From Candidatus Moraniibacteriota bacterium (GTDB lineage Bacteria; Patescibacteriota; Minisyncoccia; Moranbacterales; UBA2206): DNA of 64,000 nucleotides. Below are positions 1,198 through 57,091 of the stretch, in pieces; the first letter of the stretch is position 1; each line of letters opens with the position of its first letter. Location: NCBI GenBank assembly GCA_030645735.1, contig JAUSNP010000006.1:260824-324823 (forward strand), in the 5' to 3' direction. The notes under the pieces were generated by a model. The model was not told where the DNA came from and ran no database searches. It worked only from the letters and a program-made list of their open reading frames with translations. A program made the position numbers and the translations under genes.

Positions 1198-2301
1198 TCA
1201 ATTTAATTTTTTAAACTTTTTATATTCACCTTCGATATATTCCTTTATTCTAGCCTTAAATAGGCTTTTGTCAAACTTTTTGGCCTTTTCTCGGCTATAT
1301 TCTGGGTCATATTGCAAAGCGTCCAACTTCTGAATAGCTGACACAATGTCTGAAACGGTCTGAGACTCAAAGAATATGCCTGATTTGCCTTCTTCTACAT
1401 GTTCCACCACATCTCCGCCTCGGAAGGCCACAATCGGCTTGCCAGAGGCCAGTGCTTCCATTGCTACAATTCCAAAGTCCTCCTCTTGTGGAAACAAAAA
1501 GGCTCGACATTTAGCATAATATTTCGGCAATTCCGAATCTGGCACACGACCCAAAAATTCAATATTTGAGTTAGCTAATTTCTGCAATCTTTTCATTTCT
1601 GGACCGCGACCAATGATTTTTAGCTTAAGCCCCAATTTATTGAAAGCCTTGATGGTGATGTCATGTCGTTTGTAGGCCACGAGCCTACCCACCATCAGAA
1701 ATGACCCGTCATTGTCGTTACTGACTGAGAATCTTTCTACATCCACGGGCGGATGAATGACGGTGCTATCGCGTTTATAATATTTTTTAATTCTTTTCGC
1801 TACAAAATTTGAATTGGCGATGATCTTATCTGGTCGTTCAGCGCTGACTCGATCCCAAATGCGAATATAGTTCATAAAAAACGGCACCAATTTCTTTACA
1901 ATATTGGGGAAATCAAAATCACTGGTATATTTCTGACAATCATCCCACGCATAGCGCATCGGGGTGTGCATATAGCACAGGTGCAATGTGTCTGGCCCGG
2001 TGATGATGCCTTTGGCATAGCTAGAAGAATCTGACAACACAATATCATAATTGGAAAAATCGAACTGCTCAATCGCCATGGGCATGAACTGCGGAAAAAT
2101 CCGATGATGCCTTTTGGCAAATGGCAATTTTTGAATAAAAGAAGTTTTGATTTTTTTGTCAGCAAAAACACCATGCATCAACTCTTTGTTGTACACCAAA
2201 GTATAAATTGGAGCATCAGGAAAAAGTTCAGTAAAACATTCCAGCACTCTTTCCGCTCCGCCATATTGAACCAAATAATCGTGAACTAAAGCTATGCGCA
2301 T
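1198..2301 (-). CDS. Glycosyltransferase family 4 (group 1 glycosyl transferase)
   Basis: 367 aa. N-terminus MRIALVHDYLVQYGGAERV. C-terminal GT4 motifs FLFPQEEDFGIVAMEALASGKPIV and EHVEEGKSG. The stop codon is TGA. Confidence 0.85.
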   Translation of the reverse strand: MRIALVHDYLVQYGGAERVLECFTELFPDAPIYTLVYNKELMHGVFADKKIKTSFIQKLPFAKRHHRIFPQFMPMAIEQFDFSNYDIVLSDSSSYAKGIITGPDTLHLCYMHTPMRYAWDDCQKYTSDFDFPNIVKKLVPFFMNYIRIWDRVSAERPDKIIANSNFVAKRIKKYYKRDSTVIHPPVDVERFSVSNDNDGSFLMVGRLVAYKRHDITIKAFNKLGLKLKIIGRGPEMKRLQKLANSNIEFLGRVPDSELPKYYAKCRAFLFPQEEDFGIVAMEALASGKPIVAFRGGDVVEHVEEGKSGIFFESQTVSDIVSAIQKLDALQYDPEYSREKAKKFDKSLFKARIKEYIEGEYKKFKKLN

Positions 2302-8255: not shown

Positions 8256-9395
8256 TTATCTTAATTCCGCATTCAATTCCTTTTCAGTTTTTGTGCGGAT
8301 TTTTGCTTGGATCTCATTGATTTCTTCATTGGTCAAAGTTCTTTCAGATGAACGATAGGTTATGCGAAAGGTGTAGCTCTTTTTGTCCGCACCAAACTTT
8401 TCCTCATTCTCATATTCATCCAAAAGCTTCACTTCCTCAATTAGATTGTCCGCATAATCTCGAACGATTTCATAATAATTATTGAGGCTTATGTCCTTAT
8501 TAATGACAAATGAAATGTCTCTAGTAGTTGCGGGAAACTTGCTAACCTCTTTGAATTTACTGTTGATGTCTTTGAATTGACTTGTGATTCTTTCATCAGT
8601 CGACCAGATAATTCGAATATCCGGTATTTCCATTTTTATCATTGCCAATCTCTCTCCAAAACCAAAAGCCCAACCATTGTAGACTTCTGGATCTAGGCCA
8701 AAGTTTTTCAAAACAACCGGGCTAACTAGTCCAGCACCATTGACCTCCATCCAATCTCCGTTGAATTTGATATCCATCTCCAAACTCTCTACTGTGTATG
8801 GGAAATTGTCTTCCAAAAATTTATACTCAATGTCTGATCCAAAAATCCCCTTGGCCAAATCAATCTGAACATCTTTTAGATCCTGCTGAGTGACAATTTT
8901 TTTGTCTTTTTTGCAAATAAACAATCCATCAATTTGATGAAAAGCCGGAAAATGATGCCTGTCTATTTCATCTTTTCTAAAAACAATTCCTGGAGCCAAG
9001 GCCTTGATTTCACCTTCTTCTTCCAATTTTTTCAAAACCTCTTTGTCTTTCAAATAGAAAGACCAAAAAGCTGTCATCTGCGTTCTCAAGATATGCACAT
9101 CATCCAAATAATATGTGTCGGTTTCTCCTCGACTTGGATGATCCTTCGGAGCGTTCAAAAGATCAAAGCATTGCTCGACGGTTATGATTTTTGGAAATTC
9201 AACGATATCAAAGCCTTCAAATCTTGGTAAGTTTATTATTTGATCAAATAAAATTTTCACCGGTGAATGTTCTTTTTTTGTAAGGTCCGGCAAAGCCAAA
9301 AATCTTTTTATGCGCTCGGCTTTTATATCACTTCTTTTATTCAATTCTTCTATTAACTTTTTTTCATCATTGTCCTCAATAACAATCTTGCGCAT
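8256..9395 (-). CDS. pheS: Phenylalanine--tRNA ligase alpha-like catalytic subunit with a fused C-terminal FDX-ACB anticodon-binding domain (mitochondrial-type single-chain architecture)
   Basis: 379 aa. Class II motifs HPSRGETDTYYL, FRKDEIDRHHFPAFHQIDG and GWAFGFGERLAMI. The C-terminus FPATTRDISFVINKD...YTFRITYRSSERTLTNEEI matches the PheT C-terminal B8 (FDX-ACB) domain. Confidence 0.75.
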   Translation of the reverse strand: MRKIVIEDNDEKKLIEELNKRSDIKAERIKRFLALPDLTKKEHSPVKILFDQIINLPRFEGFDIVEFPKIITVEQCFDLLNAPKDHPSRGETDTYYLDDVHILRTQMTAFWSFYLKDKEVLKKLEEEGEIKALAPGIVFRKDEIDRHHFPAFHQIDGLFICKKDKKIVTQQDLKDVQIDLAKGIFGSDIEYKFLEDNFPYTVESLEMDIKFNGDWMEVNGAGLVSPVVLKNFGLDPEVYNGWAFGFGERLAMIKMEIPDIRIIWSTDERITSQFKDINSKFKEVSKFPATTRDISFVINKDISLNNYYEIVRDYADNLIEEVKLLDEYENEEKFGADKKSYTFRITYRSSERTLTNEEINEIQAKIRTKTEKELNAELR

Positions 9396-10413: not shown

Positions 10414-11598
10414 CTAAAAAACAATTTTTGCAAAACCAAATTTTCCAACTTTCAAAACTGCGCCGTCATCAGATTTCGTCAAAACTTTCTGCCAGTCAGA
10501 TTCACGCGTGCCATTGATCTCCAATCCACCTTGTTCGATTTTTCGACGCGCCTCTCCATTACTCTTGGCCAAATCAGCCAATACTAAAAATTCAATCACC
10601 TTAATTTCTTCCCTATCCACCTTTACCTCCTTTACCTCCTCAGGTAGCTCCTTATTCGAAATTGTTTTCACAAAATATTCCTTGGCTTTTTCTGCCTCAA
10701 TTTCTCCATGATAAATCTTCACAATTTCTTGCGCCAAAACAATTTTAGCATCCCGCGGATTTTCCAGTTGCAAGAGTTTTTCGACTTCTTCCATTGGAAT
10801 TCTGGTACAATGGATTAGATATTCTTGCAGTAAAGAATCTGGGATGCTCATTATTTTTCCAAACATACTATTTGAGTCATCCAAAAGATTGATAGTGTTT
10901 CCCCAACTTGAACTCATCTTTCGACCATCTGTTCCAGAAATAATGTTGGTCATCAAAATGTCTTGTGGTTTTTGTCCAAATTTTTCTTGCAAAACTCTAC
11001 CAGCCAACAAATTGAATCGCTGGTCTTGTCCGCCCAATTCAACATCCGCTCGCAATTCCACACTGTCATAGCCTTGCATCAACGGATACAAAACTTCTCG
11101 CAAAGAAACTCGCTTGCCAGCGTCTAATCTTTTTTTGATATTATCTCTCGAAATAAATTCATGCAAAGAAAAACAATCAGCGTGCTCGCCAATTTCACGA
11201 TATCCCAATTTGTTCAACCAATCTGCATTATATACGACCTCAACTTTGCTCATATCCAAAAGCTTTCCGGCTTGCTCAGCATAGGCCTGCATATTTTTTT
11301 CTACCATTTCTTGAACCAACATTGGTCGCTCTGAGTCTTTGTCTGAAGTATCGCCAATCACCCCAGTAGCATTTCCCACCAAAAGAATGATGTGATGTCC
11401 CAATTCTTGCAGATCTTTCAATTTCAAAAGCAAAACCGCCCGGCCAATATGAATGTTTGGACTAGTCGGATCCATGCCAAACTTTATTCTCAGTTTTTCA
11501 CCGGAAAGTAGTTTTTTTCTTAAACTGTCTTTATTGATAGCCTCGGCAACGCCACGGCTCAAGATCTCATCTATTTGATTTTCCAAGTTTTTTTCCAT
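10414..11598 (-). CDS. tyrS: Tyrosine--tRNA ligase with C-terminal S4 domain
   Basis: HIGH-region GMDPTSPNIHIGRAV and the KMSSS motif. The listed ORF begins at a non-ATG codon; the first ATG is at 11598. Confidence 0.85.
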   Translation of the reverse strand: MEKNLENQIDEILSRGVAEAINKDSLRKKLLSGEKLRIKFGMDPTSPNIHIGRAVLLLKLKDLQELGHHIILLVGNATGVIGDTSDKDSERPMLVQEMVEKNMQAYAEQAGKLLDMSKVEVVYNADWLNKLGYREIGEHADCFSLHEFISRDNIKKRLDAGKRVSLREVLYPLMQGYDSVELRADVELGGQDQRFNLLAGRVLQEKFGQKPQDILMTNIISGTDGRKMSSSWGNTINLLDDSNSMFGKIMSIPDSLLQEYLIHCTRIPMEEVEKLLQLENPRDAKIVLAQEIVKIYHGEIEAEKAKEYFVKTISNKELPEEVKEVKVDREEIKVIEFLVLADLAKSNGEARRKIEQGGLEINGTRESDWQKVLTKSDDGAVLKVGKFGFAKIVF

Positions 11599-11646
11599 AT
11601 GTAAATAATACCAGCCTAAAGGCTTTCTTGCAACACTAATCAAAAT

Positions 11647-11678
11647 AAAACCAGCTTATTTGAAATAAGCTGGTTTTT
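11647..11678. terminator. Bidirectional intrinsic-terminator hairpin
   Basis: AAACCAGCTTATTTGAAATAAGCTGGTTT flanked by A and T runs, between the dsbA-like stop and the tyrS start. Confidence 0.5.
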
Positions 11679-11693
11679 ATATGAAAAGCTAGA

Positions 11694-12710
11694 TTATTGT
11701 CCAAATTTTTCATCAATTGTGCCTTGCAGGTCATCTTTACTGACTACGCCATTTTTGAGTTGATCATTGATGAAAGTGGCTGGTGTGCCAGAAAGTCCCA
11801 GACTGTCCGCCTCAACTTTGTTGGCATCAATGACAGATTGATATTGCTTTGAATCTAGACACTTGTTGAATTTATTGGTATCCAACTTGAGCGCTCGAGC
11901 ATAGTCCTTGAATTTTTGTGTGCCGGTGGTTTTACCCCATTCAGCCTGCGTGGCATAGAGCTTGTCGCCAAATTCCCAGAATTTATTTTGTTCCTGAGCG
12001 CAAGAGGCAGCCAAGGCCGCGCTATTGGCTTGTGGATGACTAGAAAGTGGCAAATGCTTATAGACAAACAAAGTCTTCTCGCCATAGGCCTTCATCGTTT
12101 CACGCACCGTGCTCCACATAAGCTTGCAATATGGGCATTGGAAATCTGAAAAAATCACCACTTTGACGGCTGAGTCTGTTTTGCCAAAAGTCGCATCATT
12201 TTCATTGACAGTCGGAGTTTGCAAATATTTCCCTGGTTCCAATCCCAATTCTTGAGTTTTCAAAACATAGTCTTCTTCTTTCTGATCAAACAAAACATTG
12301 GCTTGCGCAAAAAATTCTGTTTCTTCCAATCCCTTGTCAAAAATAAACGCTGGCAAAGTTTTGATGCTAAATTTCTCAATCAAATATTTTCCGTCCTGAC
12401 TGTTGGCATCCACTTCCTCCACTGCGATAGTTGGCAACACGCGATGGAACCACACCAACACTTCCGATGGATCACAGGCCACGCACGCATCATCACTCAA
12501 AACTTTCACGTTCATAGCTGGCTCACTATAGGCTACCCAGGTTTTGCCATTGGCTTCGAAGATGTCAGACTTGTTCAGATTTTTGGCAGAAAAACCGCCA
12601 CCCCGCACAACTTGCGCCACATCCACGAAAAGACTGCCCACAAAAAGTCCGGCCAACAAAATCACAATTGAGATTAGATTTTTAATTTTTGCTTCGTTAT
12701 TATGTTCCAT
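11694..12710 (-). CDS. Membrane-anchored DsbA-family thiol:disulfide oxidoreductase
   Basis: 338 aa. N-terminal transmembrane helix, CPYC active site, and tandem thioredoxin-like halves. Confidence 0.75.
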   Translation of the reverse strand: MEHNNEAKIKNLISIVILLAGLFVGSLFVDVAQVVRGGGFSAKNLNKSDIFEANGKTWVAYSEPAMNVKVLSDDACVACDPSEVLVWFHRVLPTIAVEEVDANSQDGKYLIEKFSIKTLPAFIFDKGLEETEFFAQANVLFDQKEEDYVLKTQELGLEPGKYLQTPTVNENDATFGKTDSAVKVVIFSDFQCPYCKLMWSTVRETMKAYGEKTLFVYKHLPLSSHPQANSAALAASCAQEQNKFWEFGDKLYATQAEWGKTTGTQKFKDYARALKLDTNKFNKCLDSKQYQSVIDANKVEADSLGLSGTPATFINDQLKNGVVSKDDLQGTIDEKFGQ

Positions 12711-12742
12711 AAAATTTATTTGATTTATCTAATTTAAATTGA

Positions 12743-13084
12743 TTATTCAGCTGGTTGATTTTCAGTTGTTTGTTGCTCAATGCTTTTCTTCGCCACCTCC
12801 AGTTGCATTTGATTGAAATCCACATCTTGTTTGACAATTTTCATCTGCCAATCATCATAGCCAATTGTAACTCGACGCGTGGCTTCTGTTTTAATGGCAA
12901 TACCTACTAGGATTCCAAGGATAAACAACAATCCAAATTCAATATAGCGATCCGTTTTTTTCTTGCGCTCAATTTCTTCCGGAGAAATTTCAGCTTCAGA
13001 AAAATCAACTTCGGCAACTTTTTCTATTTTTTCAACTTCTGCTTCCTGCACTGACTCATTCTCAGTTTTTATTTCCTCATCCAT
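12743..13084 (-). CDS. Hypothetical single-pass membrane protein with an acidic N-terminus
   Basis: 113 aa with a central transmembrane helix FGLLFILGILVGIAI. Confidence 0.4.
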   Translation of the reverse strand: MDEEIKTENESVQEAEVEKIEKVAEVDFSEAEISPEEIERKKKTDRYIEFGLLFILGILVGIAIKTEATRRVTIGYDDWQMKIVKQDVDFNQMQLEVAKKSIEQQTTENQPAE

Positions 13085-13267
13085 AAATTTGAATTTTTAC
13101 TAGGATTTATCGACTCCAAACTACTTTTAGATTAGCACAAACAAAAAAGCGCCACAACTTGCGCCCCATTTGCTTCTATTGCGTAATATTTGGTCTTCTG
13201 TATTTAAAAACCGCAGCCCAAGGTTTCCCTAGACTGCGGTTTACTGCATAGGCCCTGCTCGTTGAGT

Positions 13268-13453
13268 TTACAATATTTCAACGATCATTTTTGCTCCGTC
13301 CAAAACCTCCTTGCCCTTAGATTCGCCACTAGCGATATCTCGGACAAACTGCTTTAAAAGACCCTCCCTAAGCCCCGATGCCTCAACACCATCCTTCTTT
13401 GACAATGCAACCTTGATTCCATTGATTCTGTTTCCAATGTGTTCCAGTGTCAT
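13268..13453 (-). CDS. Small hypothetical protein (61 aa)
   Basis: Strong Shine-Dalgarno GGGAGGATGA before the ATG. A downstream hairpin plus T-run sits at 13208-13245 on the minus strand. GC about 47%. Confidence 0.4.
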   Translation of the reverse strand: MTLEHIGNRINGIKVALSKKDGVEASGLREGLLKQFVRDIASGESKGKEVLDGAKMIVEIL

Positions 13454-13582
13454 TATTCATCCTCCCGCTAAATTAATATCGCATAAACGACTCAATTACC
13501 TGCTTAGAAAAGTACTGTTCTAAAAGGAGATTATCATAAGTCTACTCGAAATGCAACTTGAATATCTATAGCTTTTATATTG

Positions 13583-14833
13583 TTACTCTTTGCGCAAGGC
13601 TTCCATCGGACTCAAAAGTGAAGCCTTGCGAGCTGGATAGAGTCCAAAAAGCACACCTGTGACCACCGAGAAACCCACGCCCAACAAAACTGAATAACCC
13701 GAAACGACAAAGTCCACAGCAAAACCAAAGTTGTGGGCGACTTTGCTTGCCAAAAATGCCAAACCGGCTCCCAACGCAATTCCGACCAATCCGCCTATGA
13801 CTGTGATGAAAATCGCTTCAAACAAAAACTGTTTCAAGATGATGGAATTTTTGGCACCCACCGCTTTGCGCAAACCAATCTCAGCTGTTCGCTCAGTGAC
13901 CGAAACATACATCACATTCATGATTCCCACCCCGCCTACAATCAAAGAAATCGAAGTCAAAGAAAGCAACAATGCATTGACAATCAAAAAGACTTTATCC
14001 AAAATGCCAGCCACCTCCGTGATGGAAGTGATGGCAAAATCATCTTTGTTGGGATCAGTGATTTTGTGTCGTTGTCGCATCAATCCATTGGCTTCATCGA
14101 TTGTCGCATCAGTTTGAGCCTTGTCTTTCATTTTTATAACCGAAGATTGGACATAATCAATGCCAGCAATTTTTTTCTGATAGGTGCGCATCGGCACATA
14201 GGCCAATTCATCGAAATTGAAAAAGCCTGTCGCCCCGCGTTCTTGCAGATAGCCAATCACACGATAATTGGCACCTTTGAGCTTGATATTTTTCCCAACT
14301 GGATTCTCATCAGCAAAAAGCGCCGTCTTGACCGCACTGCCCAAAACAATCACCTGATCCAAACTTTTATCCTCCTCGTCAGTAAATCCAACTCCACCAG
14401 CAAATTTCGTCTGCTGATCAATATCAAAAATTTGTGAAGTAGTCGCATACAGCATCGTCTGCTTGGTTTCCGGACCATAACTCGCAATAGCCTGTCCGAT
14501 ACTAGCCGCGTACCAGCCCGCTACATTGGACAATTTTCCCACGGCCTCAATATCTTCAATTTTCAAAGTTGTCACTGAACCACTCGAACTGCCTTGGATA
14601 TTCTTAGTTGAAGTCTTGCTTACTTGCGGTACCTTGACTTCCAAAGCAATGATGTCTGTGCCGAAGGCTTCAATTTGACCAACAATATAACCCTTCACGC
14701 CCAAACCAAATGACAAAACAACAATCACCGCCACCACGCCAATCACAATACCCAAAATCGACAAAGTCGTCCGACCAACATTGGCGCGCAGATTGTTGAG
14801 AGCTAATTTAATTGAAGTTACTATCTCATGCAT
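13583..14833 (-). CDS. ABC transporter permease, FtsX/MacB family
   Basis: 416 aa. N-terminal transmembrane helix, large periplasmic domain, C-terminal FtsX 3-TM bundle. Confidence 0.85.
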   Translation of the reverse strand: MHEIVTSIKLALNNLRANVGRTTLSILGIVIGVVAVIVVLSFGLGVKGYIVGQIEAFGTDIIALEVKVPQVSKTSTKNIQGSSSGSVTTLKIEDIEAVGKLSNVAGWYAASIGQAIASYGPETKQTMLYATTSQIFDIDQQTKFAGGVGFTDEEDKSLDQVIVLGSAVKTALFADENPVGKNIKLKGANYRVIGYLQERGATGFFNFDELAYVPMRTYQKKIAGIDYVQSSVIKMKDKAQTDATIDEANGLMRQRHKITDPNKDDFAITSITEVAGILDKVFLIVNALLLSLTSISLIVGGVGIMNVMYVSVTERTAEIGLRKAVGAKNSIILKQFLFEAIFITVIGGLVGIALGAGLAFLASKVAHNFGFAVDFVVSGYSVLLGVGFSVVTGVLFGLYPARKASLLSPMEALRKE

Positions 14834-14845
14834 AATATGATTCTT

Positions 14846-14950
14846 GTCATTCCGGCCTTGAGCCGGAATCTACTTATTGTAATTGCGAATTTAAATTTAA
14901 TTCAATGAAACACAGGGCAGATCCCGGGTCAAGCCCGGGATGACATTTTT
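14846..14950. mobile_element. MITE-like element with about 24-bp terminal inverted repeats, copy 1
   Basis: TGTCATTCCGGCCTTGAGCCGGAAT ... ATCCCGGGTCAAGCCCGGGATGACA. Each terminus is itself a hairpin. About 80% identical to the reverse complement of 56225-56320. Confidence 0.6.
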
Positions 14951-14955
14951 TTAAT

Positions 14956-16206
14956 TTATTCATATCTAAGCGCTTCCATTGGCGAAATTTTAGCAGCTTT
15001 GCGAGCTGGATAGAGTCCGAAAATGAATCCAATAGCAATTGAAACCGATGTCGCCACCAAGACCGATTGTCCGGAAACAATAAACTGCCAGTCATAACCC
15101 ATAAAATTCGTCACTACCGTAGAAATTATAAACGCCAGCGCAATACCCAAGACAATGCCGATTATGCCACCCGCTAGGGTTATCGTGGCCGATTCAATCA
15201 AAAACTGCAACATGATTGTGCCATTCTTAGCTCCCACGGCTTTACGCAACCCAACCTCACGAATGCGCTGATTGACTGAAATAAGCATAATATTCATAAT
15301 CCCCACTCCGCCAACTAGCAATGAAATTGAACCAACTGACAGCAAAAAATATTTCAAAATATCCGTGATGTTGGAAATGATCTTCAAAGCTGAAGCGGTG
15401 TCGCGCACCGAGAAATCATCATCCTTGGGATTTTTGATATCGTGCTGAATGCGCATGGTCTTGGCCACATCCTCCTTAGCCGCCGCAATTTCATCTGGAT
15501 TGGCAATTTTCAAACGGATATAGGACAAATGATCGATGCCCAAAATTATTTTTTGCGCCGTTTTGAGTGGCATCATAATCGCGTCGCTTGAACCACCTAC
15601 GCCAAACCCTGCGCTACCCTTGTCTTTCAACACTCCTACCACTGTGAAATTCTCGTCTTTCACTTTGATTTTTTTATTCAAGGCATCATCAATACCAAAT
15701 AAATCTTTCTTAGCGCCCGCACCTAACACGACAATGCGCGAAAGACTCACATCATCTTCTGGTACAAAAAAACGGCCTTGTTCCAATTCAACATTTTCCA
15801 CATTGATATAATCATGCGTCACGCCCATCACTGAAAAAGAAAAATCATTTTTTTGATAGCTCACTGTCTGCACGCCTTGCGCATAAGCACAGCCCGTTTC
15901 AACTTCGGGCACATTTTTCTTGTCCATCAAGGCTAAAAAATCCTCATACTTCAAAGTTGTGATGATGATGCCCAAGGCTTGTGCCGGTGGACCTTTTTCA
16001 TCCGAAGCACCAGGCAAAACTCCCACCAAATTTGAACCGATACCCGACACTTGATCCAAAATCAAAGTCTGCGCCGAACTGCCAATCGCCATAATCACAA
16101 TCACCGACGCCACGCCAATAATAATTCCCAGCACCGTCAAAAACGACCGAAATTTATTCGCCACCAAATTCCTATATGAAATTTTAACCGGATCCAAGAC
16201 TCGCAT
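14956..16206 (-). CDS. ABC transporter permease, FtsX/MacB family (paralog)
   Basis: 416 aa with the same topology as 13583..14833. Confidence 0.85.
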   Translation of the reverse strand: MRVLDPVKISYRNLVANKFRSFLTVLGIIIGVASVIVIMAIGSSAQTLILDQVSGIGSNLVGVLPGASDEKGPPAQALGIIITTLKYEDFLALMDKKNVPEVETGCAYAQGVQTVSYQKNDFSFSVMGVTHDYINVENVELEQGRFFVPEDDVSLSRIVVLGAGAKKDLFGIDDALNKKIKVKDENFTVVGVLKDKGSAGFGVGGSSDAIMMPLKTAQKIILGIDHLSYIRLKIANPDEIAAAKEDVAKTMRIQHDIKNPKDDDFSVRDTASALKIISNITDILKYFLLSVGSISLLVGGVGIMNIMLISVNQRIREVGLRKAVGAKNGTIMLQFLIESATITLAGGIIGIVLGIALAFIISTVVTNFMGYDWQFIVSGQSVLVATSVSIAIGFIFGLYPARKAAKISPMEALRYE

Positions 16207-50574: not shown

Positions 50575-50820
50575 TCCGCAAGGGTGAGTTTTTTGATTAC
50601 ACGTCATTTTTATTTCATAAAAATTACGGTTTGTCCATTTTCTTTGGCAGCAAAGAAAGTGGACGAAAAGAAACTGCTGCCCAGACTCGTGCTGTCTAAA
50701 TTTCTAGCGTACTCGCTAAAATTCCAATAAGAACGCTAAAAGGAAAACTAGTATGTAATTTCTTAACGCTCGTGCGCTGAAATTTAGAAACGCACTTCGT
50801 TATGGGCGAAAGTTTTTTTT
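50575..50820 (-). repeat. Dispersed ~250-bp intergenic repeat, copy B, inverted relative to copy A
   Basis: The reverse complement aligns at about 75% to 55290-55550 (GTGCGTTTCTAAATT...GAGCGTTAAGAAATT...AATTTTAGYGAG...TTTAGACAGCAC...CTTTGCTGCCAAAGAAAATGGAC). It includes a terminal terminator hairpin. Confidence 0.6.
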
Positions 50821-51724
50821 AAATTTTAAATATTAATTCGGCCGTCATTCCCTGTTTACGTTTGCGGTGCTTGATGGCACCTAGGAAGTGCGATTCTTTT
50901 TCAGTGAAACCAACTGAGACAATTAGATTTTGCCATCGTTCTATTGATTTATATTGCATTGTCCAAGGCATGTAGGTGTTTTGTAGATTCATCAACCAAT
51001 CATTGATGAACAAAAATTTTATTTTGTCTTCTGGGGACAACTGCAAGAAATCAGCGGTCACCTCTGACATTTGCAAATTGAATTTGGCCAAATATTTTTC
51101 GATTTCTTCCACTTCACAATTTGTCTCCGGAAAAGATTCTTCAAAAACGATTAGTTTCCCATCTGCCTTCAAAACCCGCCTGAGTTCTGCAAAAATCCCC
51201 TGCGACTCCTGCTCACTTTTCAAATGATGCAAAACCAGTTTGATTGTCACCAGATCCACTGACGCATCTACAATTTCACTCAGACTTCGGTGAAATTCAA
51301 TGCGGGTGTCCAGCCCATTCAAAACCGGCTGGCTCTTCAAATCAATTCCAATCAATTTTTTGATCTCCAAATTTTTCTCAGCCATGTTTTTCAAAAACGC
51401 CAATTTGCCACAACCGAAATCCAACATCGTTTCCACACCCCGCAAATCCTCTTCAATCATTTCCAAAAACATATCCCCTGGCTTGCCCAAGTCCAAGCTG
51501 TCATCGCGAAACTCTTTCAACTTTTTTTGATACAACTTGTTGATTTCTCGATTCGATCCAAGATTTTTGATTTCCGCAAAAAACGCTTCCACAAATTTTT
51601 CTGGGTCAATCAGATTTTCATGATTGGCAACCCAATGTTTTTTGAGCACAGCCAAAATATCCTTGGATGCCAAAATATCCAGAGGGTTTTTCAGTATTTC
51701 AGAATCAACAATATTCTTTAGCAT
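50819..51724 (-). CDS. Class I SAM-dependent methyltransferase
   Basis: 301 aa, motif I MLDFGCGKLAF. Confidence 0.6.
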   Translation of the reverse strand: MLKNIVDSEILKNPLDILASKDILAVLKKHWVANHENLIDPEKFVEAFFAEIKNLGSNREINKLYQKKLKEFRDDSLDLGKPGDMFLEMIEEDLRGVETMLDFGCGKLAFLKNMAEKNLEIKKLIGIDLKSQPVLNGLDTRIEFHRSLSEIVDASVDLVTIKLVLHHLKSEQESQGIFAELRRVLKADGKLIVFEESFPETNCEVEEIEKYLAKFNLQMSEVTADFLQLSPEDKIKFLFINDWLMNLQNTYMPWTMQYKSIERWQNLIVSVGFTEKESHFLGAIKHRKRKQGMTAELIFKI

Positions 51725-54363: not shown

Positions 54364-55272
54364 ATGCAAATCGAAACTATTGGTGACCTGCAAAAAGAAT
54401 ACTTTGGCAAAATCGATCATCTCGATTTGGATTTGATTGTGGCGCATTCAATCAAAAAAACTCGGGAATTCGTGATGTCACATCCCGAACACAAGCCCAC
54501 AGGCGCCCAATTGGCCAAAATCAAGACATTTGCCCAGCGAAGGGCCAAACACGAGCCCTTGGCCTATATTTTGGGTCACAAAGAGTTCTTCGGCCTGAAT
54601 TTCAAAGTTTCGCCGGATACCCTGATTCCCCGACCGGAAACGGAGTTGCTCGTTGAACTCGCAATGCAAAACGTGGAACGTGAAACACAAAACGCAAAAT
54701 CGTTACACGATATGCGTTACACGATATGTGACATCGGCACTGGCAGTGGGAATATAATAATCTCAGTTGCAAAAACAATGACCATTGACCGATTACCGAT
54801 GATCAACTTTTTTGCTATCGACATTTCCAAAGAGGCTTTGAAGATTGCCAAACAAAATGCCAAGATCAACGCAATTTCTGACAAAATAAAATTTATCCAT
54901 GGAAATCTATTAGATCCAATTATAAAAAATCCTACCAACTACCAACTACCAACTACCAACTTAGTTATTCTGGCTAATCTTCCCTACCTCTCTCAAGAGA
55001 TTTATTCCGCCACCCTGCCCAATGTCAAAAAGTTTGAACCCAAGTCCGCCCTCTGGAGCGCCAAAGAAGGTTTGGATCATTATGAAAAATTATTACAACA
55101 AATTGCAGAGCTAAAATCGTGTTATATATTTCATGTTTCATGTTTCATGGAAATTAGCCCCGAACAAAAAACCAAACTTCCCAAAATTATCAAAAAGCAT
55201 CTTCCTCAAGCAAAAACACAATTCCACAAAGACTTAGCTGGCAAGTGGAGAGTTTGTGCAATTAAAGTTTAA
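54364..55272 (+). CDS. prmC: Release factor glutamine N5-methyltransferase (HemK)
   Basis: LAYILGHKEFFGLNFKV, RPETE, DIGTGSGNI, and NLPY in place of NPPY. It contains a 7-bp x4 tandem repeat at 54932-54959. Confidence 0.75.
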   Translation: MQIETIGDLQKEYFGKIDHLDLDLIVAHSIKKTREFVMSHPEHKPTGAQLAKIKTFAQRRAKHEPLAYILGHKEFFGLNFKVSPDTLIPRPETELLVELAMQNVERETQNAKSLHDMRYTICDIGTGSGNIIISVAKTMTIDRLPMINFFAIDISKEALKIAKQNAKINAISDKIKFIHGNLLDPIIKNPTNYQLPTTNLVILANLPYLSQEIYSATLPNVKKFEPKSALWSAKEGLDHYEKLLQQIAELKSCYIFHVSCFMEISPEQKTKLPKIIKKHLPQAKTQFHKDLAGKWRVCAIKV

Positions 55273-55289
55273 AATTTAAAAAAATAAAT

Positions 55290-55575
55290 CCGCGCCTTGG
55301 CGTTAGTGCGTTTCTAAATTCCAGATTGTGAGCGTTAAGAAATTTTTCGCTGCTCCTCTTAGCGGAAAGTCGTCCCTAAAATTTTAGTGAGCAATCTGAG
55401 AATTTAGACAGCACAAGCCGGCGCCGGCGGTTTCTTTTTGCCACTTTCTTTGCCGCCAAAGAAAATGGCGAACTGTTTTCTTTGCTGCCAAAGAAAATGG
55501 ACACTCTGTTCTTTTGCTGCCAAAAGAAAGTTAGAGCTGAAAATCAAAAACCCGCATGTTAGCGGGTTTTTGATA
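55290..55575 (+). repeat. Dispersed ~250-bp intergenic repeat, copy A
   Basis: Conserved 5' block CCGCGCCTTGGCGTTAGTGCGTTTCTAAATT. Three tandem hairpins with CNGC loops (TTTCTTTGCCGCCAAAGAAA, TTTTCTTTGCTGCCAAAGAAAA, TTCTTTTGCTGCCAAAAGAAAG). A terminal terminator AAAAACCCGCATGTTAGCGGGTTTTT. Confidence 0.6.
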
Positions 55576-55671: not shown

Positions 55672-55827
55672 CTATTTCTTTTTCTTTTTTGCTACAACTT
55701 TCTTTTTAGCTACTTTCTTTACTGCCTTTTTAGCTACTTTTTTTACAGCTTTTTTTGCAACTTTTTTTACTGCCTTTTTTACAGCTTTTTTTGCAACTTT
55801 TTTTACTGCTTTCTTTTTTGCTGCCAT
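55672..55827 (-). CDS. Lys/Ala-rich histone H1-like 'KKAV' repeat DNA-binding protein (51 aa); not in the supplied ORF track
   Basis: Manual minus-strand translation from the ATG at 55825-55827: MAAKKKAVKKVAKKAVKKAVKKVAKKAVKKVAKKAVKKVAKKKVVAKKKKK, ending at TAG. Shine-Dalgarno AAGGAAGGTGA lies 8 nt upstream. Confidence 0.6.
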   Translation of the reverse strand: MAAKKKAVKKVAKKAVKKAVKKVAKKAVKKVAKKAVKKVAKKKVVAKKKKK

Positions 55828-56224
55828 GTGGGTTTCACCTTCCTTTCTATTTTTAGTTTTATTTTTATACTTTTTTGTTTCGACCTTTTTATTTCGTCAG
55901 GAATATTTTTTAAAATTAAAAAATATTTCTCAACTACATAAATTATATAACATTTAAATTTATTTGCAATAGCAAAAAGTTATCCACAGGGCAAATTTTT
56001 TAACTTTCATTTTTTATTTTCTATTTTAAAAAATAATTTATTTTGCTTTTTGAAAAACATTGGGTGATTCTAAGTTAAAAGTTAAAAAATTAAAATTACA
56101 AAATCCAAATCACAAATCACAAACAAATCACAAATCTCAAAATTTTAAATAAAATCTAAATTTAAAAATTTAAAAAAACTTTCCGCGCCTTGCGTAGTGC
56201 GTTTCTAAATTTAATTGTCATCCC

Positions 56225-56320
56225 AGGCTTGACCTGGGATCTTCCTTACAATTCATCCAATAAATTAAATTTCGCGATTACAGTGAGTAGATTCCGGCTC
56301 AAGGCCGGAATGACAGACTT
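56225..56320. mobile_element. MITE-like element, copy 2 (inverse orientation), adjacent to a partial copy of the 250-bp repeat
   Basis: TGTCATCCCAGGCTTGACCTGGGAT ... ATTCCGGCTCAAGGCCGGAATGACA. The reverse complement aligns to 14846-14950. It is preceded by CCGCGCCTTGCGTAGTGCGTTTCTAAATTT at 56185-56225. Confidence 0.6.
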
Positions 56321-56512: not shown

Positions 56513-57091
56513 ATGGAAGAAGAAATCAAAACTGAAGAAGAAATGGATCAAGAAATTTCAACCAAGCAATGGCTTCAAGACAACCTTCGCATCATCATTA
56601 GCATCCTAATCGTGGTTGCTATCGCTGGCGGAATCTATTCATACTCAAACCGAGGAGAAGATTCAGCTAAGAATGATCAGGAAGTTGCTCAACAAGAAGA
56701 ATCAACTGGCGATAATTCAGAAGTTACCATAGACAAAATTTCTGAAACTACCCCAGCAGCTAAAACTGAAACTGTTGCATCTAGCCAAGAAACTGAAAAA
56801 TCTTTTATTGAAAAGGCTGGAAAGGGAGATGGCTCAACCGTTCTTGCTCGCAGAGCTCTAGCTAATTTTCTAGAAAAGAACCAAGACTCAGCCCTAACAG
56901 CAGAACACAAAATCTATATTGAGGACTATCTGCGCAAGAATGTTTCCCACAAAGGAAGCGTGCACATTGGAACTTCGATAGAATTCTCTAAAGACCTAAT
57001 TCAAGATGCGATTGCAAAATCGAAGAATCTGAACGAAAAACAATTACAGAATTTGCACAAGTATGCCGTTAGAGTTCCCTCTCTAGCATAG
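56513..57091 (+). CDS. Hypothetical membrane-anchored protein (192 aa)
   Basis: Acidic N-terminus, one transmembrane helix. Its ribosome-binding context ATAGAAAGGAAGGTGAAAC is nearly identical to that of the KKAV gene. Confidence 0.5.
   Translation: MEEEIKTEEEMDQEISTKQWLQDNLRIIISILIVVAIAGGIYSYSNRGEDSAKNDQEVAQQEESTGDNSEVTIDKISETTPAAKTETVASSQETEKSFIEKAGKGDGSTVLARRALANFLEKNQDSALTAEHKIYIEDYLRKNVSHKGSVHIGTSIEFSKDLIQDAIAKSKNLNEKQLQNLHKYAVRVPSLA

Follow-up and report, generated by a model that had tools for sequence, protein, structure and literature searches.

The closest described relatives of the element treated here are the NTS hairpins of Neisseria (CGTCATTCCCGCGMAVGCGGGAATCYRG) and the broader Ssn-related motif (SRM), both defined by Chenal et al. 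(Nat Commun 2025, PMC11893778). The gene ssnA, whose 94-aa product has a single GIY-YIG domain (cd10448), is flanked by them in many bacteria, and the hairpin-ssnA-hairpin layout has been likened to an insertion sequence, although no transposition was demonstrated (PMC11893778). Binding of SsnA to the hairpin requires single-stranded DNA and is limited to one of the two strands, and the cut is made a few nucleotides upstream of the hairpin; cleavage depends critically on the GTC 5' of the palindrome, and binding on the C 3' of it (PMC11893778). In Neisseria meningitidis, NTS limits the integration of incoming single-stranded DNA (PMC11893778). The SRM was given as the degenerate pattern HGTCWYN(0-2)YYVSBRHN(0-5)WNVSBRGN(0-2)RNCYNB, made by hand from 29 genomes of 4 phyla (PMC11893778). 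In the literature searched, we found no further papers on the Ssn-hairpin system. Here, we describe two inverted pairs of such hairpins, doublets A and B, in a stretch of 64,000 nucleotides from a Candidatus Moraniibacteriota bacterium (contig JAUSNP010000006.1, positions 260,824 to 324,823), which is called the window in the following. Each unit is probably a non-autonomous doublet in the manner of a REPIN, built from two inverted Ssn-related hairpins of the NTS/SRM family, and may be mobilised by Ssn.

Doublet A is a TGTCA...TGACA unit of 101 nt (14845-14945) inside the 122-nt spacer (14834-14955) between two permease genes. An earlier note, made from the letters of this stretch, had placed a unit of about 105 bp at 14846-14950 and a second, reverse copy at 56225-56320. 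Both are present with slightly different ends, the second (doublet B) at 56216-56315 and identical to doublet A at 84% of positions overall and at 70% in the AT-rich core. The note's description of the unit as a palindromic repeat that occurs in several copies, codes for nothing and ends in inverted hairpins starting in TGTCA is accurate. A third copy, C, is located in another Moranbacteria genome. All features are compiled in Table 1.

Every end follows the same design: GTCAT, an 8-bp stem, a CTTGA loop and a C. As single-stranded DNA, each end is predicted to form the 8-bp stem with its 5-nt loop at -8.1 to -9.3 kcal/mol (-8.7 kcal/mol for arm 1 of doublet A). The full unit also closes as a single long hairpin, with predicted RNA energies of -43.9 and -47.0 kcal/mol (z-scores -6.5 and -7.8) for copy A. 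The four hairpin ends of the window are far beyond chance. The hairpin pattern has four exact matches in the window, which has a G+C content of 36-44%, against 0.23 expected even when up to two mismatches are allowed. A covariance model (CM), trained on hairpins of other genomes only and thus without any window sequence, scores the four ends at 39-43.5 bits (E-values of 1e-9 to 2e-8) in forward orientation versus 11.7-13.9 bits in reverse; the next best site in the 64 kb reaches 13.9 bits. The positions known to matter for SsnA are retained, as GTC before the palindrome and C after it are kept in all four ends, TGTC-AT(T/C)CC...GG(A/G)AT-C, and one of the four (14917-14945, minus strand) matches the SRM pattern exactly. 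In the Logan assembly of run SRR13727526, a 3,981-bp contig corresponds to window 10893-14873 and ends 29 nt into doublet A, within the stretch common to both copies, as expected of a repeat.

The hairpin is widespread. With the 26-nt end pattern TGTCATYCCNGNCTTGANCNGGRATC, we scanned one genome per species, where about 0.3 chance matches are expected as estimated from the size of the collection. At least 120 genome stretches contain the motif, and they represent more than 20 phyla, among them Proteobacteria, Bacteroidota, Chloroflexota, Planctomycetota, Actinomycetota, Nitrospirota, Spirochaetota, Fibrobacterota, Elusimicrobia, Omnitrophota, Dependentiae and several lineages of the Candidate Phyla Radiation (CPR); viral contigs with the motif, looked at in view of a phage origin, number only 27. 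The three stem pairs that the pattern leaves free are Watson-Crick pairs in 133, 135 and 127 of the 137 matches listed, with up to four pair types, and this near-perfect pairing at free positions indicates that the hairpin itself is under selection. Two-sided changes occur at 7 of the 8 stem pairs, in an alignment that was chosen for perfect stems. An inverted partner follows downstream within 260 nt in 73 of 126 matches listed (approximately 58%) versus 16 of 129 in a back-to-back control, and therefore the inverted doublet is the usual form of the family. Its length among the matches listed has a median of 81 nt (range 55-201), and by size the window units are ordinary family members. Long open reading frames (ORFs) contain 18 of the 137 hairpins among the matches listed, mostly in high-G+C genomes, where such frames are common. 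As a side observation, doublets also occur in head-to-tail tandem arrays, as in an Azospirillaceae metagenome-assembled genome (L073, 2588-3085), where four of them follow one another with a period of 124 nt, and as duplicated blocks (L115, at 535 and 762; L077, 3811-3990). Such arrays could be a trace of the copying mechanism.

The earlier note had proposed to look for a longer relative with matching ends and a transposase. A longer relative does exist in Moranbacteria, and it encodes a nuclease instead. In Candidatus Moranbacteria GCA_002790635.1 (L127/L128), the hairpin TGTCATTCCCGACTTGATCGGGAATCCAG is followed by 16 nt, a 96-aa GIY-YIG ORF, 1 nt and the inverted hairpin CTAGATTCCCGCCTTCGCGGGAATGACA. 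Among the at least 120 loci of the scan, a GIY-YIG ORF adjoins hairpins in L093 (Saccharibacteria) and L039 (Flavobacteriales). In L039, the ORF is enclosed by two hairpins, and each has the CTTGA loop seen in the window. The 94-aa protein of L093 has Tyr6, Tyr17 and Glu64, i.e., the residues that were mutated in N. meningitidis SsnA, and its homologues include the 96-aa Candidatus Moranbacteria protein P0232, which is encoded at the L127/L128 locus. An NCBIfam search with the small nuclease gave no specific family, and a PDB sequence search returned weak UPF0213 GIY-YIG matches only. Most of its close homologues (P0121-P0240) sit on contigs of 0.5-3 kb, as expected if a hairpin-bounded gene is itself an assembly-breaking repeat. 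Judged from this likeness, the doublet is in effect the two ends of a hairpin-ssn-hairpin unit, in which the GIY-YIG gene would be gone and a short AT-rich core would stand in its place. The core of copy A was also considered as a remnant of the 3' end of ssn, since AATTCAATGA precedes the right arm both here and in L127; the shared stretch is too short to count, and the idea stays no more than a lead.

Inverted hairpin palindromes about 50 nt apart, at intergenic sites and without target duplication, are likewise the anatomy of REP (repetitive extragenic palindromic) doublets, REPINs, which are spread by RAYT, a Y1 HUH transposase related to IS200/IS605 TnpA. A gene adjoining the permease pair of one relative even has a weak Y1_Tnp Pfam match (223 aa, just upstream of the pair, in the relative of P0004). 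We nevertheless regard a RAYT origin as very improbable. The hairpin is of the SRM/NTS type (GTCAT...ATC) and not a GTAG-headed REP, and it flanks GIY-YIG rather than RAYT genes. Furthermore, the relative with the Y1_Tnp-like gene carries no hairpin in its permease spacer, and the window holds four hairpins only, so that no window ORF is bounded by them.

Presence and absence of the unit speak for turnover. The earlier note had proposed a check for empty sites, and these were found in both directions. The orthologous permease-permease spacer is free of the hairpin in all three relatives compared (Table 1), and copy C resides where the window has an empty site. When metagenomes were scanned with a core-specific pattern, copy C (L126) was the single further locus of the subfamily detected; its identity to copy A is 89% (79% in the core). 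The rpsB, rpmE and methyltransferase genes of the L126 genome and the window genome share 70-80% identity only, and by these comparisons the doublet copies are closer to each other than their carrier genomes are. A second doublet subfamily is common to L122, where it lies downstream of rplL, and to L160; the two loci are unrelated, and the left arm TGTCATTCCCGTGAAAACGGGAATCTAGTCA is identical in both. The doublet is thus gained and lost quickly between close relatives. Two doublets of other genomes are recorded here for completeness, neither with a counterpart in the window: the L122 doublet (8626-8732), which follows the rplL terminator and has a 28-nt insertion in its right-arm loop, and a doublet of L161 (244-324) between bacA and prfA.

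Such polymorphism, together with terminal inverted repeats, small size, several copies and the lack of coding capacity, would also fit a classical miniature inverted-repeat transposable element (MITE), that is, an internally deleted DDE-type insertion sequence that is mobilised when a transposase supplied in trans recognises its terminal inverted repeats. It was as a MITE-like element that the earlier note had presented the unit. The terminal repeats, the small size, the absence of an ORF and the gain and loss of copies have stood up; a transposase and target-site duplications have not appeared. No target-site duplications flank copies A, B and C, and none were found in 72 doublets of other genomes under four boundary definitions. 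The flanking direct repeats of these 72 doublets equal the shuffled expectation, with one boundary offset slightly above it, by 1-nt repeats only. Without a target-site duplication, the MITE label in its transposase-derived sense fails a defining test. Moreover, the only longer elements with matching ends carry a nuclease of about 95 aa of the GIY-YIG type, and the covariation of the stems points to recognition of a single-stranded hairpin rather than of a duplex transposase site. A classical MITE is therefore an extremely improbable explanation.

A hotspot was found in a class I S-adenosylmethionine (SAM) methyltransferase gene. Copy C lies in frame in this gene of L126, the orthologue of window 50819-51724, and adds approximately 30 residues (CHSGLEPES...IPGQARED) after the conserved FEESFPE motif. 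A doublet is located at the same codon position in 4 of 51 orthologues (five sequences; L126 and P0266 are the same protein), and about 43 orthologues, including that of the window, are empty at this site. The methyltransferase ORFs of L126, L160, L161 and L162 are intact despite their doublets. In a neighbour-joining tree of the methyltransferases, the carriers fall into at least three clades, and the sister of the L160 protein (84% identity) has an empty site. The inserts of L126 and L160 belong to different subfamilies, each with copies elsewhere. Scattered clades and distinct subfamilies tend to favour insertions or replacements that recurred at a preferred site, as against a single ancient insertion. 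In an AlphaFold model of the L160 protein (mean predicted local distance difference test, pLDDT, 88.5; predicted template modelling score, pTM, 0.88), the insert (residues 216-241) is a low-confidence loop with block means of 54-78, placed between a strand and a helix of a confidently predicted fold.

Some resemblance between the doublets and the native sequence was observed at this site. The native methyltransferase site GAAGAATCTTTTCCGGAG holds GAATCT and TTCCGG, which are similar to the two hairpin halves. Within its core, the A/B/C subfamily has the motif AATTGCGAA (AATCGCGAA in B), at window 14878-14890 and 56270-56282 and in the L126 core, and this motif is identical in 8 of 9 positions to the native AAT TGT GAA (Asn-Cys-Glu) at the empty site of the window (51113-51124). 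In the L160 insert, the core ATT TGT GAC (Ile-Cys-Asp) fits the native [IV]-C-[DE] motif. The likeness of core and native codons could reflect captured host sequence, selection keeping the Cys, or chance.

At the permease locus, both genes next to doublet A encode MacB_PCD+FtsX proteins with 37% mutual identity, in line with the earlier note, which had read them as paralogous FtsX permease genes around a 122-bp spacer. An ABC ATPase gene and an HlyD-type adaptor gene precede the permease pair, which gives the context of a MacAB-like efflux operon. The gene content of this operon differs between relatives; in L122, the ATPase gene is separated from the first permease gene by an additional 582-aa gene (831-2579) without Pfam match. 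The permease spacers of the relatives are unrelated and AT-rich, and have no Shine-Dalgarno sequence. In the spacer of L122 (3931-4000), simple repeats of the TTTGTGA/TTTGTAA type stand in the place of doublet A, and repeats of this type also occupy an intergenic spacer of the window (56100-56150).

It had been suggested in the earlier note that the unit could act as a terminator or attenuator between the permease genes. This does not agree with the strand and the sequence: no U-tract was found after the doublet A hairpin on the transcribed (minus) strand, the sole terminator-like arrangement lies on the plus strand and thus antisense to the operon, and none was seen on checking copy B. In its mRNA context, doublet A is predicted to pair with itself (-50 kcal/mol for a 171-nt stretch), and neither the stop codon upstream of it nor the AUG, which follows 11 nt downstream, is paired in the predicted fold. 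Doublet A is most likely a tolerated passenger that is co-transcribed within the efflux operon, and most likely neither ends sense transcription nor, going by the fold, covers the adjacent stop and start codons.

A host function on the RNA level more generally, be it as an intercistronic terminator, an attenuator, an mRNA-stabilising hairpin or a small-RNA gene like Wolbachia WsnRNA46, has several observations in its favour. The predicted hairpin in the operon transcript is very stable (-47 kcal/mol, z-score -7.8), and the core contains a weak promoter-like site, TTGAAT-18 nt-TACAAT (14876-14905, minus strand, 9 of 12 matches), which is aimed at the downstream permease gene. At the Rfam gathering thresholds, neither copy A nor copy B has a match; a permissive search returned sub-threshold matches to WsnRNA46 (RF02625), the best one, and to plant microRNA precursors only, of which the latter were rejected as generic long-hairpin matches. 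The WsnRNA46 match of copy A spans the whole model (E-value of 1e-5), with 34.0 and 32.8 bits. This is about half of the gathering score of 65.3, the score is equal on both strands, and copy B gives no match at E <= 0.01. Nor, on direct comparison, does copy B conserve the promoter-like site. Given in addition the missing U-tract on the sense strand and three relatives without the unit and with unrelated spacers, we consider an RNA-level host function quite unlikely. There is also no regulatory logic common to the copies, with B in a divergent promoter region and C within a coding sequence.

Table 1. Doublets, hairpin arms and compared sites in the window and in related genomes. Bits refer to the covariance model (CM).
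Feature	Sequence	Coordinates	Strand	Remarks
Doublet A, complete unit TGTCATTCCGGCCTTGAGCCGGAATCTAC...GCAGATCCCGGGTCAAGCCCGGGATGACA	window	14845..14945	+	between two permease genes
Doublet A arm 1, SRM-type hairpin, TGTCAT TCCGGC CTTGA GCCGGA ATCTAC	window	14845..14873	forward on +	CM R1 43.5 bits, E 1e-9
Doublet A, AT-rich core between arms	window	14874..14916	+	70-79% identity among copies A, B, C
Doublet A arm 2, SRM-type hairpin, TGTCAT CCCGGG CTTGA CCCGGG ATCTGC	window	14917..14945	forward on -	CM 39.8 bits
Doublet B, 100-nt copy, inverted relative to A	window	56216..56315	-	divergent intergenic region, ORFs 55672-55827 (-) and 56513-57091 (+)
Doublet B arm matching A arm 2, CCCAGG/CCTGGG for CCCGGG/CCCGGG (compensatory change)	window	56216..56244	+	CM 39.1 bits
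Doublet B arm, same as A arm 1 over 30 nt	window	56287..56315	-	CM 42.3 bits
Upstream MacB/FtsX-type permease gene, 416 aa	window	14956..16206	-	stop codon 10 nt from doublet A
Downstream MacB/FtsX-type permease gene, 416 aa	window	13583..14833	-	start codon 11 nt from doublet A
Empty site in class I SAM methyltransferase gene (FEESFPE-TNCEVEEIEK)	window	51095..51145	-	in-frame doublets here in other Moranbacteria orthologues
Methyltransferase insert (copy C)	L126	2326-2426		100 nt, in frame, syntenic locus DNA
Methyltransferase insert	L160	2145-2225		79 nt, in frame, syntenic locus DNA
Methyltransferase insert	L161	2103-2183		~78 nt, in frame, syntenic locus DNA
Methyltransferase insert	L162	~2150-2245		~95 nt, longer stems, in frame, syntenic locus DNA
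Permease spacer without hairpin, 70 nt	L122			permease 96% identical in protein, 88-91% in DNA
Permease spacer without hairpin, 39 nt	L123/L124			permease 81% identical in protein
Permease spacer without hairpin, 125 nt, AT-rich	L125			permease 74% identical in protein

How a doublet would be mobilised by Ssn is something we infer by analogy, with the nicking steps based on the published Neisseria and Wolbachia Ssn biochemistry. During single-stranded DNA phases such as replication, transformation or repair, the 5' end of each doublet strand would expose a single hairpin in forward orientation, which reads GTC, stem, loop, stem, C. If the genome codes for an Ssn at another place, this enzyme could bind the forward hairpin and nick the DNA a few nucleotides upstream. 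The two nicks would then lie at either outer edge of the unit, one per strand and on opposite strands, and together with host repair or recombination they would be a likely route to copying, loss and replacement of the unit. Fill-in of two staggered nicks might even give a tandem duplication, a speculation that would fit the four-copy array of L073.

Several points weigh against mobilisation of the doublets by Ssn. Only two miniature units were counted in the 64-kb window. Three of its four hairpin ends deviate from the SRM pattern at two positions, which amount to one compensated base pair, and are thus no literal matches. No GIY-YIG gene was found in the window by an iterative hidden Markov model search in six frames, nor did we find a full-length unit with exactly these arms (ATCTAC/ATCTGC subterminal sequence). 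The placing of the L127, L093 and L039 proteins in the Ssn clade (cd10448) is a matter of size, gene architecture and catalytic residues. Finally, the known Ssn activity is nicking of single-stranded DNA only, and a single nick in each strand is not enough to account for insertion at a new site. We regard it as possible, yet rather doubtful, that the doublets are true mobile elements in the strict sense, moved in trans by a GIY-YIG single-strand nuclease without transposase or target duplication, with a preferred landing site and in-frame colonisation of coding sequence.

The hairpins might instead be immobile, host-kept Ssn recognition marks that limit the integration of incoming single-stranded DNA, as NTS does in Neisseria meningitidis. 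This is the only experimentally shown role of the hairpin family, and a doublet offers a cleavable site whichever strand enters the cell. The density in the window, four hairpins in 64 kb, is low. The fast gain and loss of copies and an insertion within a coding sequence resemble spread rather than maintenance, and non-orthologous copies in different genomes are more alike than ribosomal-protein genes. Host-kept immobile marks are thus unlikely. This reading and that of a doublet spread by Ssn do not exclude each other.

Besides the doublets, the surroundings of copy B contain further repeats. The 51-aa ORF at 55672-55827 (minus strand), which adjoins the doublet B region, is rich in Lys, Ala and Val (MAAKKKAVKKVAKKAV...), is made of 12-nt tandem repeats and has the look of a histone-like basic protein. 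A separate repeat of approximately 230 nt, with no relation to the doublets, is present in full copies at 50600-50840 (+) and 55260-55530 (-) and as a partial copy at 56153-56212 (-). The two full copies are inverted and bracket a 4.5-kb block with the methyltransferase gene, a hypothetical gene, prfA and prmC, and the partial one stops 3 nt short of doublet B. As RNA, this repeat is predicted to fold at -74.3 kcal/mol (z-score -6.5) with a 16-bp hairpin; an Rfam search with it returned no match, and it is conserved at about 71% at the orthologous place in L126. It could be a non-coding RNA or another palindromic element. At its start (50603-50629, +), there is an AT-rich look-alike of the hairpin head, CGTCATTTTTATTTCATAAAAATTACG, with GTCAT and an 8-bp palindrome. 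It has T instead of C after the stem and is not picked up by the covariance model, and it is probably due to chance.

The locus and its relatives bear on how Ssn hairpin repeats multiply, in a family that was described only in 2025. They add gene-less doublets with a conserved core, presence and absence between genomes of about 90% identity, copies that are more conserved than ribosomal-protein genes, the lack of a target duplication, and one methyltransferase codon position with different doublets in several lineages. The mobility of the doublets thereby becomes testable, and the hairpin family is extended to the small genomes of the CPR. For annotation, the doublets account for a class of assembly breaks and for odd peptide insertions (CHSGLEPES..., ...IPGQARED) in CPR proteins. 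If movement in trans by the nuclease should prove true, the methyltransferase hotspot of Moranbacteria with its two distinct subfamilies would be the first case recorded in nature of an Ssn system inserting repeatedly and in a site-directed manner, and Rickettsia palindromic elements (RPE), WsnRNA46-type and NTS repeats could form one nuclease-driven class in more than 20 phyla, including the CPR.

Among named elements, several resemble the window unit in one respect and differ in another. Correia elements, a MITE of Neisseria, are inverted-repeat units of about 100-150 bp as well, located in intergenic or intercistronic regions, co-transcribed and able to form long hairpins. They have TA target duplications as well as IHF and promoter modules. 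In sequence they are unrelated to the window unit, where no target duplication was found. REP/REPIN-RAYT systems share the inverted hairpin doublets, the lack of a target duplication, a small single-gene 'master' with the same flanking hairpins, and a presumed recognition as single-stranded DNA. The enzyme is a HUH Y1 transposase there and a GIY-YIG nuclease here, with another fold and another chemistry. The REP head is GTAG as compared to GTCAT, and REP/REPIN hairpins are species-specific, whereas the sequence of the Ssn-type hairpin is conserved across phyla.

RPEs are short palindromic repeats that insert in frame in protein genes at tolerated positions (PMC10969869). A parallel exists in the in-frame doublets of the methyltransferase loop, found in at least four orthologues with the predicted fold kept, and the likeness is one of behaviour. 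The two copies of the window itself are intergenic, so that the in-frame trait belongs to related copies. The consensus of WsnRNA46 is itself an inverted doublet of GUGUCAU...GGGAUCCAG hairpins of approximately 130 nt, and copy A aligns with the full length of the model on both strands. Its stems and core are unrelated in sequence to the window unit, and being a discrete RNA is a feature of WsnRNA46.

The closest agreement is with NTS/SRM. Like these, the window ends have a GTC followed by a palindrome that starts in AT(T/C)CC, a short loop, and a C directly behind the stem, and such hairpins flank single-domain GIY-YIG genes of 94-96 aa at the loci from Moranbacteria, Saccharibacteria and Flavobacteriales. 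The NTS loop is of the GMAVG type, as opposed to CTTGA on both arms of the window units. The defining study is concerned with hairpins taken singly and with how they cluster around genes, for the most part in Pseudomonadati; its main text makes no mention of Patescibacteria, of inverted doublets that lack a gene and have a conserved core, or of in-frame insertions into genes (PMC11893778). By these comparisons, the window unit is of an already known kind, the Ssn-type hairpin family, and what is new is its occurrence in the CPR, the clean polymorphisms and the methyltransferase hotspot.

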